From sequence record NC_027356.1: a DNA stretch of 64,000 bases; one strand, 5' to 3'. Within the stretch, counting starts at the first letter, position 1; the number at the start of each line of letters is the position of its first letter. The stretch is from Escherichia phage DT57C. The notes under the pieces are model-generated. The model did not search any database. It was not told the DNA's origin and saw only the letters and a program-made list of their open reading frames with translations. The translations under genes were made by a program, and so were the position numbers. Shown in pieces: positions 12,143 to 20,613 of this stretch.

Positions 12143-12580
12143 TTAATGAAGTTGTTTACCACTTCTTAACATAGTGGCCGTTTCCATAAGACCTAGCGTA
12201 GTATCACGCTTATTGATCTGTTTACCAAGTTCATCAGTACGTTTACTGATGTAAGCATTAATAGCCATATTCATAGCTGTAGCGAGATCTTCTTTGGTTA
12301 TCTCTTCATCATCTAAAGCTAGGTTAGCCAAAGAATCAAATGTGCTAGAGAGTCCTACAAGATCTGAGGTTTCTCCAGCCAAAATAGGATTAATATTATC
12401 TACTGTTACTTCTAGCATGGAGTTAACAATATCTTCACCGTCTATTAGACCAAATTCAATATTACTCTCCCACTCCTTCATCTGTTCCAGCAATGGATTT
12501 TTCTTTTCTGTCATGATAGAGGTTTCCTGTGTCAGTTGGTAAGAAGGATGATTGTGTCTTAGGAGGATGTTGCTTAGCAA
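12143..12580 (-). CDS. Hypothetical acidic protein (start probably internal)
   Basis: 145-aa ORF overlapping upstream ORF. Confidence 0.45.
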   Translation of the reverse strand: MLSNILLRHNHPSYQLTQETSIMTEKKNPLLEQMKEWESNIEFGLIDGEDIVNSMLEVTVDNINPILAGETSDLVGLSSTFDSLANLALDDEEITKEDLATAMNMAINAYISKRTDELGKQINKRDTTLGLMETATMLRSGKQLH

Positions 12581-12923
12581 TCCAGTTAAGAATCAGCACG
12601 CGACTAGGAACAATATCGGTATTATACCAAAAATCGTGAACCCATTGACGAGCATCTTCAAACTTACCAAATTTATACGCTTTCTTAAACAATTCAAATC
12701 CAAAACAATCTGGTGTAAAGTCTACTTCGCGATATTGAACTACTTTAGAGCCAGTTAGGTCTTGGATCGCTGCATTAATTTCTGTATGTGAGAATTTTGT
12801 TTCATGAAACTTATTAAAGAATCGGTAGTTGAAGCGTCCGTTCGTTTCGACAAATAACTGGATGAAGAGATCGTTAAATTGGTTATCAAACCAGTAATTC
12901 TGTAGTTGTTGTAGTGCTGTCAT
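12462..12923 (-). CDS. Hypothetical protein
   Basis: 153-aa ORF. Confidence 0.5.
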   Translation of the reverse strand: MTALQQLQNYWFDNQFNDLFIQLFVETNGRFNYRFFNKFHETKFSHTEINAAIQDLTGSKVVQYREVDFTPDCFGFELFKKAYKFGKFEDARQWVHDFWYNTDIVPSRVLILNWIAKQHPPKTQSSFLPTDTGNLYHDRKEKSIAGTDEGVGE

Positions 12924-14081: not shown

Positions 14082-14351
14082 TTATTTCTTACCTTTCAGT
14101 TGCTTAACTTCACGCTCAAAAGATGCTGCACGACGTTCGGCGGTTGCCTGATGCTCTTTAGCAAAACGTGCTTCTTGTTTTGCAAGGTTGAATGCCATAG
14201 CGTTCTTATTAAGAGAATCGTACATCTTTTTCATTGCTGGGATGGACATTTTCATCAGTTGCCCCTCAAATCCTTGCATATCGAGGAGAATTGCCAGAAC
14301 GTTAGCCATTTCATTTTTAGTCATGTTTTCCATTATAATTTCCTCTCTCAT
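14082..14351 (-). CDS. Hypothetical protein
   Basis: 89-aa ORF directly downstream of consensus early promoter. Confidence 0.55.
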   Translation of the reverse strand: MREEIIMENMTKNEMANVLAILLDMQGFEGQLMKMSIPAMKKMYDSLNKNAMAFNLAKQEARFAKEHQATAERRAASFEREVKQLKGKK

Positions 14352-14364
14352 TAATTTATGAACT

Positions 14365-14393
14365 TATTATACAGAATTTTGAGGTTTAAAGCA
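14365..14393 (-). promoter_or_regulatory. Sigma70-type early promoter (TTGCTT-17-TATAAT)
   Basis: -10 at 14365-14370 and -35 at 14388-14393 (plus-strand coords), AT-rich upstream, conserved downstream aaattaatgagagagg RBS region. Confidence 0.6.
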
Positions 14394-14411
14394 ACTGAAT
14401 TTTTTAATTAC

Positions 14412-14840
14412 TTACCAATCGTTAACGAAACCTGAGAACTCAGAAGTTAATACTTGTTCAAATTTCTCTGCAATTTCAGGATGATCTTTGCAGATCAGCT
14501 CAATACATGCTTCTGGAGTCATTCCTTCATCTTCAGGATCACCATAATACTTGTCCCAAAGATCATCAGGGATGATGTGCTCTGCCAAATCTTGGAAATA
14601 GACTGCCTGATAACGTGGGGCTTCTTCAGCAAAGAGTTCTTCGATCTCTTCATCTGCCTCACCTTTGTAATCTGCCATTAATAGGGCATCAGTTGCGTAA
14701 CACTCCCAAACCATCAAGCGTTCAGAAATAGGATTAGACTTATCCTGAACGTAAGACTGAAACAGGGTTCGGAAAGTTGCCTTAACTTGTTCAAATTTAT
14801 CTGCTGCTGCGAAAACTAGAGCTTTATCAACTTTGTTCAT
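14412..14840 (-). CDS. Hypothetical acidic protein
   Basis: 142-aa ORF. Confidence 0.55.
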   Translation of the reverse strand: MNKVDKALVFAAADKFEQVKATFRTLFQSYVQDKSNPISERLMVWECYATDALLMADYKGEADEEIEELFAEEAPRYQAVYFQDLAEHIIPDDLWDKYYGDPEDEGMTPEACIELICKDHPEIAEKFEQVLTSEFSGFVNDW

Positions 14841-14870
14841 TTTTATTCCTTCTCATCAATTTATAAAGTA

Positions 14871-14899
14871 ATTATACAGAAACTTAGGCATTTTAGCAA
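14871..14899 (-). promoter_or_regulatory. Sigma70-type early promoter (TTGCTA-17-TATAAT)
   Basis: -10 14871-14876, -35 14894-14899. Confidence 0.6.
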
Positions 14900-15007
14900 A
14901 TAAAACTTTTAATTAAAATGCCTAGTCCTGTACCAACAGCAATACAAATGATTATAAGTATTGCTACTGCTTGTATGATTCGTTTAATAATAACCTCAGC
15001 TATACAC

Positions 15008-15529
15008 TTAGACATTTAACATCCAGCTAGTTTTATCCTGAGAAGTATACTTACCACTCATGATGTCTTCCAGGCGTACTGGTGATTTTGCATACTCTAC
15101 ACAAACGTTAATATAACGAGGGTCTCCCATTAACTCAAAATGGGTATGCCCGTGTAAGTTCTTCTTGCCCCTTAGCTCTCCTGGATGTACTGGAGCGTGG
15201 GAAAGCCAAAAGTTTTTATACTTAACTAGGGATTGTACATTATCTACAATTCCCACTAAGTCTTTGAAAGATAACCCTTCTCGTTCTAAGTCGTGGTTCC
15301 CCAAAACTAATGTAGTTCTAACATTGCTAAAGAGTTTTTCGAACTTCTCCAAACCATTTCTAGATACAAATGCATCTCCTAAAATATAAAATACTGTACG
15401 CTTATCTTTCATGGATGTAATAGTATCCATGATAAATTCATCATGCTCTTCCATAGTAGAGAAGATTGGTCTGAATTTAGTAATATTTGCATGTCCTAAA
15501 TGGAGATCACTCCAAAAGCAGACTTTCAT
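15008..15529 (-). CDS. Calcineurin-like metallophosphoesterase
   Basis: 173-aa ORF; motifs DLHLGH, GDAF, GNHD, GHTH. Confidence 0.6.
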   Translation of the reverse strand: MKVCFWSDLHLGHANITKFRPIFSTMEEHDEFIMDTITSMKDKRTVFYILGDAFVSRNGLEKFEKLFSNVRTTLVLGNHDLEREGLSFKDLVGIVDNVQSLVKYKNFWLSHAPVHPGELRGKKNLHGHTHFELMGDPRYINVCVEYAKSPVRLEDIMSGKYTSQDKTSWMLNV

Positions 15530-16404
15530 TAAAGAATCCTCTGTATGCCACAGCTATCTTCTCGAAGCGTGGTAAATGTTGTGATTTTGCCAGTTTCATC
15601 ATTAACTTGCGCAACCGTCAACTGCCCGTTGAAGACACCGCCAGTATCTAGGTAAACACGATTCTGGTATAAAATAGGGTAAGGTACTCCAGTATGCCCA
15701 TGAAACACAAAGTCTACTCCATTAACTGGAGGTACTTCTACCATGTATTTTTCTTTAAATCCTGCATAACGCTGGAAGTACGGGTGTTCCTCACTATTTT
15801 TGGACAAATGGAAGCCTATTTCTTGTATTACATCTCGATCCCATAAGTATGGTTCAACATGGTATTCAGGATGGTCATGTGGGTCTTCCTTAGCTGCTTC
15901 TACTTGTGCAATAAGGCTATCCCATACTGGGGTTTCTACTTCGTTACCGCATTCTTTGTACGTAAAAGGTACACCACCATGAACAACACCATATTTCTTG
16001 CCACGATGCAGCACAGTCAGAAATACTGGAAGTTTTTCAGCCATGTCTTCGGCAATATTTTTAATGGTATCTGTATCTAGTTCATTCATAGCCCACATAC
16101 CACCGTTATACATCCAGTTAGTCCAATCTCCTCCAATCATAAACTGGTCGTGGTTTCCACGAACGCTACAGAAACGTGGATTATACAGGAATTTGGCTAA
16201 AACTTGCAGATTCTGTGTGCCTCGATCAATTAAATCTCCCACGCATACAACGCAATCTTTCTTGCCGTTATAGCCAGCTAATTGTAGTGCATCTTCTAGC
16301 AAATCGTTGCATCCATGAATATCACCAACAAAGAATAAGTTAACATCATCAGGTACTACTAGTGTTTTATGTACATTAAATTCTTTTTTCATAATTATTC
16401 CCAA
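15529..16404 (-). CDS. Serine/threonine protein phosphatase (PPP family)
   Basis: 291-aa ORF; GDIHG, GDLIDRG, GNHD motifs. Confidence 0.7.
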   Translation of the reverse strand: MGIIMKKEFNVHKTLVVPDDVNLFFVGDIHGCNDLLEDALQLAGYNGKKDCVVCVGDLIDRGTQNLQVLAKFLYNPRFCSVRGNHDQFMIGGDWTNWMYNGGMWAMNELDTDTIKNIAEDMAEKLPVFLTVLHRGKKYGVVHGGVPFTYKECGNEVETPVWDSLIAQVEAAKEDPHDHPEYHVEPYLWDRDVIQEIGFHLSKNSEEHPYFQRYAGFKEKYMVEVPPVNGVDFVFHGHTGVPYPILYQNRVYLDTGGVFNGQLTVAQVNDETGKITTFTTLREDSCGIQRIL

Positions 16405-16640
16405 ATAACATTTAAAATAGTTGTACCATAGTTATTAGATAGTTTGAGAGTATAACCCTCTTTATAAATGGCTTTCATAGCTTCATAACTAATTTCATCA
16501 CGGTTAAACTGCACATAAGAACCACCAATCTCCACAGAAGAAACTATTCTCTTTTTAACATACTTATATGGTTTCTTTCTACTCTTGAGAAGAGTAGCTC
16601 TATTAACCCTAGCTAAATGTTTTGCTTGTTCCGCTAACAT
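16395..16640 (-). CDS. Hypothetical protein
   Basis: 81-aa ORF downstream of early promoter. Confidence 0.5.
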   Translation of the reverse strand: MLAEQAKHLARVNRATLLKSRKKPYKYVKKRIVSSVEIGGSYVQFNRDEISYEAMKAIYKEGYTLKLSNNYGTTILNVIWE

Positions 16641-16667
16641 TTAATCCTCCTATCAATTTATATAAGT

Positions 16668-16696
16668 ATTATACCAAAATTTTTAGCTGAAAGCAA
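16668..16696 (-). promoter_or_regulatory. Sigma70-type early promoter
   Basis: -10 16668-16673, -35 16691-16696 (TTGCTT). Confidence 0.6.
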
Positions 16697-16705
16697 GTAA
16701 AATAA

Positions 16706-16731
16706 AAGCCTGATCCGCTAAGATCAGGCTT
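16706..16731 (-). terminator. Rho-independent terminator (aagcctgatc...gatcaggctt)
   Basis: 10-bp stem, T-rich tail on minus strand. Confidence 0.55.
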
Positions 16732-16737
16732 GATTTA

Positions 16738-17028
16738 TTAATCTTCTGGATTATCATCCAGGAAATTTTTAATGGCTTCGTGCATAGTTTCCTTACGAAG
16801 CTGACGTCCAATCAAAATATGATTAGCTTCTATTCGACCATTAGGTAAGCGATCTGCCAGAACTACTACAGGTACTTGGCGCACACCAAATTTCTGCATT
16901 AATTCTGCATTATCAGTCTCTTTATGGACTTCCAAATTATAGTCATTGACTACTTTATCAAATACTGGCTCAAACATTTTGCAAGGATTGCAAGTGGAAC
17001 CTTTTAATAGATATACTAATTTACTCAT
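16738..17028 (-). CDS. Thioredoxin/glutaredoxin-like redoxin
   Basis: 96-aa ORF; CNPC active-site motif. Confidence 0.55.
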   Translation of the reverse strand: MSKLVYLLKGSTCNPCKMFEPVFDKVVNDYNLEVHKETDNAELMQKFGVRQVPVVVLADRLPNGRIEANHILIGRQLRKETMHEAIKNFLDDNPED

Positions 17029-17452
17029 AGTTATTAATGGCCTCTAAGAAGTTTTTCATAGTTTTTACTGTTGCGGTGCTCAGATCAAGATTTACACCCA
17101 AACACTCGGTTAGTGCTTCCTGATAAGGAGCCTTTAATCTGCCTTCCGGGACTTCTACCTTTTTATATTCTTTATTTTTGACCTTTTTAATCATAGTCTC
17201 TAGTACAAGAAGTGGTAATTTAGCACCTTCAATATCAGTACCCAAAAGTTCAGTTAAAATTTTATTAAGATCAAGACGAGTTAACTTTTTGCCCTTAGAC
17301 ATAGATGCACCTACCTTTGTACCAATAGATTTTTCCGCTTTCTTTTCGAGCTTTTTGTACTCAGGAGAGTCATGATCACGGAGTGCAATGTTTAGCTCGT
17401 AATGTGGTATATGAAAATGTTCAGCCATTTGAGTGTAGAAACGATCAGACAT
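17021..17452 (-). CDS. Hypothetical protein
   Basis: 143-aa ORF. Confidence 0.5.
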   Translation of the reverse strand: MSDRFYTQMAEHFHIPHYELNIALRDHDSPEYKKLEKKAEKSIGTKVGASMSKGKKLTRLDLNKILTELLGTDIEGAKLPLLVLETMIKKVKNKEYKKVEVPEGRLKAPYQEALTECLGVNLDLSTATVKTMKNFLEAINNYE

Positions 17453-19860: not shown

Positions 19861-20613
19861 TTATCCAACTAGTGGTTCTAGCTCTAAGTCACAGAAGTTA
19901 TATACTTCTAGTTTAAGGTTATTGATACCATTGAATTTATTAACTAATTCGTGAGTAATATATTTTGCAGGAATACCACTTTCAGATGAATGATCTGATT
20001 TAATAGTGAACTTCTGCTCAGCGGGCACTATATTTACTAGTAAAGAATCCATATCTAAATGGTTCGTTTCTCTGAGTAACTCTCCTTCATTGGGGAATCT
20101 CACATCTGTTACTACGGCGACATCTGGGTCATCTTTAGCGATGGATTGCTCCAGAATTATAAGCCAAATGCGTTCATGTACCAGCTGCCTTCCTAGCTCT
20201 GTTCCTACGAGCTGTAACATTTTTCTTGGAGAAATAAATAAACTATAAAGTCCGTCTTCTTTATTCTCTGAGATAAGTTGTTGAGGATTAAGATATTTTT
20301 TCTCAAAAATCGGCCAAACGTACGAGAAGTCTTCAAACTTATCAATACCGTATTTAGACCATACATCTCTAGCTCGCTCCAATTGAGATTGTGTGATCGT
20401 AAACCATTGGTCAATCTCTTTTCCTCTGCGCTCTCCTAGAAACTCTGGAGTTACACCGAGGATTACGGATGCAAGTTCATAAACGGGCTTAGCAAAACTA
20501 TAACGACGGGGTAAACACGTTGGATACATATCATTACACCAGTCGATAATTAATTTTGCAACAGTGTCTTTTCCAGAACCAGCCCCGCCATGTAAACCTA
20601 CTAATACTGACAT
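19861..20613 (-). CDS. Deoxynucleoside monophosphate kinase
   Basis: 250-aa ORF; P-loop GGAGSGKDT at N-terminus. Confidence 0.6.
   Translation of the reverse strand: MSVLVGLHGGAGSGKDTVAKLIIDWCNDMYPTCLPRRYSFAKPVYELASVILGVTPEFLGERRGKEIDQWFTITQSQLERARDVWSKYGIDKFEDFSYVWPIFEKKYLNPQQLISENKEDGLYSLFISPRKMLQLVGTELGRQLVHERIWLIILEQSIAKDDPDVAVVTDVRFPNEGELLRETNHLDMDSLLVNIVPAEQKFTIKSDHSSESGIPAKYITHELVNKFNGINNLKLEVYNFCDLELEPLVG

Follow-up and report, generated by a model that had tools for sequence, protein, structure and literature searches.

A predicted lambda-family phosphatase and a small metallophosphoesterase encoded side by side in the early region of a T5-like phage

Introduction

Lambda-type phosphatases occur in well over a thousand deposited phage genomes, and so do small metallophosphoesterases. 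In the laboratory lambda phosphatase is a routine reagent, yet to our knowledge no phage member of either family has an established in vivo substrate. Phage T5 offers a handle because C2, one of its classical developmental genes, has reportedly been mapped to the phosphatase. Klimuk et al. 2020 place the C2 mutation in an ORF whose product is a putative Ser/Thr phosphatase of 32 kDa, tie C2 historically to RNA-polymerase modification and late-gene regulation, and note that C2 mutants lack an early protein of 90 kDa that is otherwise co-purified with RNA polymerase (PMC7472727). From the 90-kDa protein data the authors conclude that the effect of C2 on the polymerase must be indirect (PMC7472727).

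The small esterases have a described counterpart in aq_1665 of Aquifex aeolicus (PDB 1xm7), which belongs to COG4186, ‘predicted phosphoesterase or phosphohydrolase’, and is itself uncharacterised. Among phage enzymes, the mycobacteriophage Gp48-type metallophosphoesterase is likewise an early protein, with reported phosphodiesterase activity and a reported counter-defence role (PMC12287305). Acb1 and Apyc1 offer a functional analogy, both being early phage hydrolases that act on phosphodiester bonds.

Here we analyse a pair of such genes in Escherichia phage DT57C (NC_027356.1), in a window of 64,000 nucleotides to which all positions refer. A preliminary description of this DNA had suggested that the two enzymes dephosphorylate host proteins or nucleotide second messengers, possibly countering signalling-based defences.

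Results

The pair sits among the early genes of a Tequintavirus and has been seen before. By megablast against deposited phage genomes, positions 14300–17100 match Escherichia phage DT571/2 at 99.8% identity with 100% coverage and T5 at 93% identity, and 439 T5-like records match this segment. The surrounding ORFs are the T5 early-region set, including endolysin, holin, Clp-like protease and dNMP kinase; these neighbours and the megablast relatives therefore place the pair in a Tequintavirus (Demerecviridae), within its early region. It consists of two minus-strand ORFs, 15008–15529 (173 aa) and 15529–16404, the larger being the orthologue of T5.035 (orf5c) and the smaller of T5.034 (orf4c). 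Both genes are already known and have been annotated as phosphatase and phosphoesterase since 2004. The labels Ser/Thr protein phosphatase for T5.035 and phosphoesterase for T5.034 stand in the four T5 records that we inspected and in DT571/2, whose record also names the phosphatase gene C2. As a genome-scan result, the locus amounts to annotated genes found again, with a functional reading that is speculative.

As read from its sequence, the locus is a T5.036–T5.035–T5.034 early transcription unit. Upstream, a Rho-independent terminator hairpin at 16706–16731 (minus strand), with an 11-bp stem followed by a T-run, closes the thioredoxin unit and is the counterpart of a terminator annotated in T5 records. 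The T5-type sigma-70 early promoter that follows, at 16668–16696 (minus strand), was read directly as TTGCTT, a 17-nt spacer and TATAAT. Its position is that of ‘putative early promoter T5P10’ in AY587007, and a consensus scan missed it because its -35 hexamer matches at only 3 of 6 positions. The unit’s first gene, an ORF at 16395–16640 (minus strand) with an AGGAGG Shine-Dalgarno sequence, encodes an 81-aa basic protein orthologous to T5.036 (phrog_7354, E 1e-53; dN/dS 0.16 vs T5). Next come the predicted lambda/NinI-type PPP phosphatase at 15529–16392 (minus strand; 287 aa, 32.65 kDa; PF00149 and 1g5b matches) and the predicted small binuclear metallophosphoesterase at 15008–15529 (minus strand; 173 aa, 20 kDa; PF00149 match). 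A 40-aa hydrophobic ORF at 14893–15015 (minus strand; phrog_21849, E 3e-24) is the last gene ahead of the next promoter. That promoter, a sigma-70 site at 14871–14899 (minus strand; TTGCTA, 17-nt spacer, TATAAT; consensus 10/12), is the equivalent of T5 P-F30, drives the T5.033/DUF7020 gene and lies where T5 records place ‘promoter P-F 30’.

Gene junctions within the unit are tight. The T5.036 orthologue and the phosphatase meet at TAA-TT-ATG, with 2 nt between stop and start, and the phosphatase and esterase at TAATG, a 1-nt overlap at position 15529. At the junction of the esterase and the 40-aa ORF, ATGTCTAA, the start of the ORF overlaps the esterase stop by 8 nt. Between 16706 and 14300 the minus strand has no terminator-like site inside the unit, whose 12 internal promoter-like matches are no excess over the 13.0 expected from shuffled sequence. 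Checks of the locus for opposite-strand ORFs and for Rfam families returned none. Co-transcription, which the preliminary description had assumed, is thus supported as a prediction from sequence alone by a terminator followed by a promoter, tight junctions and the lack of an internal terminator. Its placement in an early operon agrees with the T5 records, T5P10 lying upstream and P-F30 downstream. The ORFs, PF00149 and PHROGs likewise bear out its claim of two adjacent, co-oriented and tightly packed genes of the metallophosphoesterase superfamily.

Several neighbouring genes carry observations of their own. The 40-aa ORF at 14893–15015 is absent from the T5 RefSeq annotation between T5.033 and T5.034; it is probably a real small membrane protein, with a single predicted transmembrane segment, encoded last in the unit. 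The T5.036 orthologue, a basic protein (pI 9.8) of 9.4 kDa, is called ‘major head protein’ in RefSeq and PHROGs, an implausible label for an early protein of this size, and the CRISPRi-ART authors also treat its annotation as ambiguous (PMC11879866). About 2.6 kb downstream of the phosphatase, in the same early region, the window encodes at 12462–12923 (minus strand) the orthologue of gpT5.026, an early protein that binds RNA polymerase and has been linked to the early-to-late switch (PMC7472727). The dNMP kinase (dnk) orthologue lies at 19861–20613 (minus strand); according to recent papers, T5 Dnk, Dmp and NrdAB trigger or evade the Kongming and Clover defences. The T5 pre-early protein A1, a predicted metallophosphatase/nuclease, adds one more metallophosphoesterase-superfamily gene in these phages.

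T5.035 is predicted to be a binuclear enzyme of the lambda-phosphatase (bacterial PPP) family with all catalytic residues intact. Its start is most likely ATG 16392 (287 aa), because the T5.035 annotation is equally long and every aligned homologue starts at that Met; this corrects TTG 16404, which is merely the start of the longest ORF. The protein matches Pfam Metallophos (PF00149) at 60.9 bits (cut-off 21.5) and, in PHROGs, phrog_246, ‘NinI-like serine-threonine phosphatase’ (E 6e-93). It is 96.2% identical in amino acids to T5 T5.035, with a dN/dS of 0.085. The PPP signature GDIHG/GDLIDRG/GNHD is complete. When T5.035 is aligned with 15 diverse homologues and lambda NinI, ten residues (D24, H26, D53, D56, R57, N80, H81, H138, R186 and H233) do not vary; they comprise the metal ligands and the phosphate-binding arginines (R57 and R186; lambda R53 and R162). 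By analogy with lambda phosphatase, H81 would be the general-acid histidine. The nearest solved structure is lambda phosphatase itself (1g5b, E 2.3e-33), matched in two blocks that cover both halves of the protein with an unaligned stretch between them.

Two narrower assignments of T5.035 were tried and rejected. Against the E. coli PrpA/PrpB equivalog models (NF008516 and NF007425) it scores 98.3 bits vs a cut-off of 326 and 80.4 vs 332. Against the ApaH models (NF001204 and TIGR00668) it scores 56.4 vs 176 and 34.4 vs 222.85 bits, with residues 19–87 alone covered. Because these scores fall far under the cut-offs, T5.035 is an equivalog of neither PrpA/PrpB nor ApaH.

T5.034 is a predicted minimal binuclear metallophosphoesterase of the aq_1665/COG4186 clade, as judged by profile similarity and by the close structural match of its model to 1xm7. 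It matches PF00149 at 31 bits (cut-off 21.5) and phrog_547 ‘phosphoesterase’ in PHROGs (E 3e-55), and its motifs run DLHLGH/GD/GNHD/H/GHTH, without the DRG element. Our search recovered 722 homologues, the majority metagenomic. Thirteen residues (D8, H10, H13, D52, N78, H79, D80, H111, P113, H115, H128, H130 and Y139) are invariant across 39 homologues; the conserved ligands indicate that the dimetal site is intact, and the family has extra conserved histidines. The AlphaFold model reaches a pLDDT of 95.4 from the 39-sequence alignment, compared with 37.8 from the single sequence. Among characterised proteins, nuclease MPE/PdeM, SbcD and Mre11 are some of its nearest neighbours in fold. Together with the absence of a DRG element, the motif sets confirm the two distinct enzymes of the preliminary description, one PPP-family phosphatase and one small calcineurin-like esterase, each with its active-site motifs intact.

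More specific origins and functions for the esterase were also examined. The model for PdeM, a ligase-associated DNA-damage-response endonuclease (TIGR04123), gives T5.034 34.7 bits vs a cut-off of 150, and among PDB sequences the Pseudomonas putida nuclease MPE 6nvo matches the T5.034 family profile at chance level (E 0.35). The genes near T5.034 are small phage ORFs, thioredoxin and lysis genes. A tandem duplication giving rise to the phosphatase and esterase was considered and set aside, hhalign returning a probability of 56% over motifs I–III only. For T5.034 we weakly favour a role on nucleotides or nucleic-acid ends, as phosphodiesterase or pyrophosphatase, over that of a protein phosphatase.

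Both genes are under strong purifying selection relative to T5 (dN/dS about 0.08; 0.081 for the esterase). Motifs, structure and selection pattern together indicate active enzymes, and we regard both genes as real, conserved and predicted to encode enzymes that are probably active.

The two genes keep a conserved order without being obligate partners. They belong to distinct subfamilies and are not recent duplicates of each other. Each family is widespread independently of the other, with 1611 phage records carrying the phosphatase family and 1392 the esterase family. The phosphatase family extends to lambda-type phages (434), P1, Escherichia myoviruses of ~145–150 kb and jumbo phages; the esterase occurs without the phosphatase in Staphylococcus Kayvirus, Ackermannviridae and Acinetobacter T4-like phages. 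Within Demerecviridae both genes are always present in the order phosphatase then esterase, and they are kept in three lineages: Markadamsvirinae, Mccorquodalevirinae and the 114-kb Vibrio phages. Their spacing varies. The phosphatase directly abuts the esterase in Tequintavirus, and the genes also abut, with a 4-nt overlap, in two divergent metagenomic relatives whose proteins are 38–41% and 50–52% identical to those of the window. One small ORF separates them in My1, two in EPS7 and 6 kb in the 114-kb Vibrio phages. The arrangement is conserved synteny without obligate coupling.

Two side observations concern the esterase. Within Markadamsvirinae its identity is bimodal, at least 90% in Tequintavirus vs ~53% in Epseptimavirus (for example L013, 3643–4158); the adjacent phosphatase ranges from 77 to 100% identity in the same subfamily. 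Taken with the extra ORFs of EPS7, this bimodality suggests allele replacement or mosaicism at the esterase site. In the T4-like Acinetobacter phage ZZ1 (L009, 3992–4531), an esterase homologue sits between gp47 (Mre11-like) and gp46 (Rad50-like), a neighbourhood that hints at a link to DNA-end metabolism.

The published C2 assignment is the best-supported biological lead. It is one secondary statement, and a targeted literature search on C2 returned nothing beyond it; it points to developmental control, not counter-defence. Our literature search found no enzymology for T5.034 or T5.035. In the T5 CRISPRi-ART screen, T5.034, T5.035 and T5.036 were all scored ‘Not Fit’ (PMC11879866, supplementary file 16), although by its authors’ own account the screen overlooked several replication genes too (PMC11879866). 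The reported placing of amber-defined C2 in the T5.035 ORF (PMC7472727) and the ‘Not Fit’ score upon CRISPRi-ART knock-down of that gene (PMC11879866) are in conflict.

Discussion

We favour an account in which the two enzymes of one T5 early unit have independent roles. T5.035 would be a Mn2+-dependent phosphomonoesterase acting on phosphoproteins in the infected cell and, on the mapping of Klimuk et al. 2020, would be encoded by classical gene C2. Its removal of phosphate from a factor of phage or host origin would indirectly change how the host RNA polymerase is composed or modified, and through the polymerase the T5 early-to-late switch. T5.034 would more likely act on a nucleotide or nucleic-acid end, as a phosphodiesterase or pyrophosphatase, than on proteins. 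The two would act independently, in phage development and in nucleotide or nucleic-acid housekeeping, and would form no dedicated anti-defence pair. Taken as a whole, we judge this account evenly poised between right and wrong. A bolder version, which we regard as a long shot, joins the genes into a conserved two-enzyme early module that controls the T5 early-to-late switch or evades a nucleotide- or phosphorylation-based host response; its lineage-specific insertions would guide the phosphatase to a factor associated with RNA polymerase, and the task of the esterase would be to remove a signal or modification derived from a nucleotide.

The structural part of the preliminary description stands, whereas its proposal that the pair degrades second messengers or counters signalling defences found no direct support and meets some evidence against it. 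Under that proposal the enzymes would destroy cyclic oligonucleotides, cCMP/cUMP or gcADPR, or would reverse phosphorylation by defence kinases. Like many counter-defence genes, both are early and dispensable for fitness on a laboratory host, as scored by CRISPRi-ART; bis-pNPP and 2',3'-cyclic nucleotides are in vitro substrates of lambda phosphatase (PMC2190708); and a counter-defence role has been reported for another phage metallophosphoesterase, mycobacteriophage Gp48 (PMC12287305). Yet Pycsar restricts T5, and supplying Apyc1 rescues it fully (Hobbs et al. 2022, PMC9117128), so T5 does not neutralise cCMP/cUMP. On a screen of 57 phage lysates that included T5 relatives, the text names T4-like and SBSphiJ-like phages alone as degraders of cyclic nucleotide signals (PMC9117128). 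The genes are also family-wide, syntenic and core-like in Demerecviridae, unlike the patchy pattern of accessory genes. Gp48 and Bxb1 gp47 come from an unrelated subfamily, phrog_221, a different PHROG, which reaches an hhalign probability of 7.6% against the T5.034 family; BLASTP gave an E of 0.98 and no similarity to T5.035. We rejected a transfer of function from Gp48 because its metallophosphoesterase subfamily differs from those of T5.034 and T5.035. PADLOC models found no match in the pair, and a Pfam search of the two proteins returned Metallophos alone, with no resemblance to Acb1 or Apyc1. The HIDEN-SEQ and Acb4 screen preprints make no mention of T5.034 or T5.035, and neither features in recent work on T5 with Clover, with Kongming or on the degradation of host DNA, which covers Dmp, Dnk, NrdAB and A1. 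On balance we find an anti-defence pair distinctly improbable.

Other substrates lead to other readings of the same fold. Processing of nucleic-acid ends, through removal of 2',3'-cyclic or 3'-phosphates from RNA or DNA or with T5.034 as a small Mn2+ nuclease, could serve healing after host anticodon or mRNA nucleases or the processing of T5 DNA nicks. It would fit the match of the N-terminal part of T5.035 to bacterial Pnkp (TIGR04075), whose lambda-phosphatase-like module heals 2',3'-cyclic ends, and to a PHROG of phosphatase-fused RNA ligases, as well as the nuclease MPE/PdeM, SbcD and Mre11 fold neighbours of T5.034 and the gp47–gp46 setting of its ZZ1 homologue. These matches are weak, however, and far under their cut-offs (Pnkp 33.5 vs 750 bits, PdeM 34.7 vs 150), the neighbouring ORFs include neither a polynucleotide kinase nor an RNA ligase, and the T5.034 profile meets 6nvo only at chance; we consider end processing unlikely. 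That T5.035 is no protein phosphatase at all but an ApaH-like dinucleoside-polyphosphate hydrolase or an Np4-cap decapping enzyme strikes us as very improbable. Its N-terminal 70 residues do reach 56 bits with ApaH models and E 3e-9 to 1e-4 with ApaH structures, and COG0639, ‘diadenosine tetraphosphatase and related Ser/Thr phosphatases’, is cited in the T5 record, but the match spans only motifs I–III, which all PPP enzymes share. With lambda phosphatase the alignment runs over the full length, the C-terminal GHT/DTG region included (E 2e-33), and ApaH, whose 176-bit cut-off is missed, is outscored by PrpA/PrpB (98 and 80 bits). Both enzymes might instead be generic, largely redundant phosphatases with no specific role in most conditions, as their shared ‘Not Fit’ score would allow; lambda ninI is likewise dispensable. 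A dN/dS of about 0.08, catalytic residues invariant across very divergent phages, retention of both genes in three Demerecviridae lineages and the conserved lineage-specific insertions of the phosphatase all argue the other way, and we hold this reading to be quite doubtful.

Neither family is known to have a defined in vivo substrate, and in this lies the residual value of the locus. A substrate for T5.035 could explain the late-transcription switch of T5, which relies on host sigma-70 RNA polymerase only. The two-enzyme module, if true, would be the first case of a substrate for a phage phosphatase of the lambda family, and COG4186 would gain its first function.

Set beside the known systems, both proteins combine familiar cores with features of their own. 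Apyc1 is a phosphodiesterase of the metallo-beta-lactamase fold and Acb1 hydrolyses its targets independently of metal (PMC9117128), whereas the only models that the two proteins match are those of Metallophos. P. putida nuclease MPE/PdeM is encoded in a ligase/Lhr repair-operon context that T5.034 lacks. Within the esterase family, H115 (in HAPIHP) and Y139 are invariant and R120 and R138 near-invariant, features not evident in the alignment with aq_1665. T5.035 shares with lambda NinI (ORF221; 1g5b) the PPP fold family and the GDxHG, GDxxDRG and GNH[DE] motifs, retains equivalents of lambda H139, R162 and H186, and is 34% identical to it. The T5.035 protein is nonetheless 66 residues longer. 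An insertion of about 25 aa, at about residues 150–174, is absent from lambda phosphatase and recurs in many homologues with variation in form; at the C terminus a tail some 20 aa long (residues ~268–287) extends beyond the lambda enzyme. A further insertion of about 25 aa, at about residues 191–215, also absent from lambda phosphatase, carries a conserved PYF[QD][RK]Y that among aligned homologues is restricted to T5-, Epseptimavirus- and My1-like phages, and it may be a substrate- or partner-binding element. Lambda phosphatase is encoded in the lambdoid nin region, whereas T5.035 sits in the early operon of a virulent phage.
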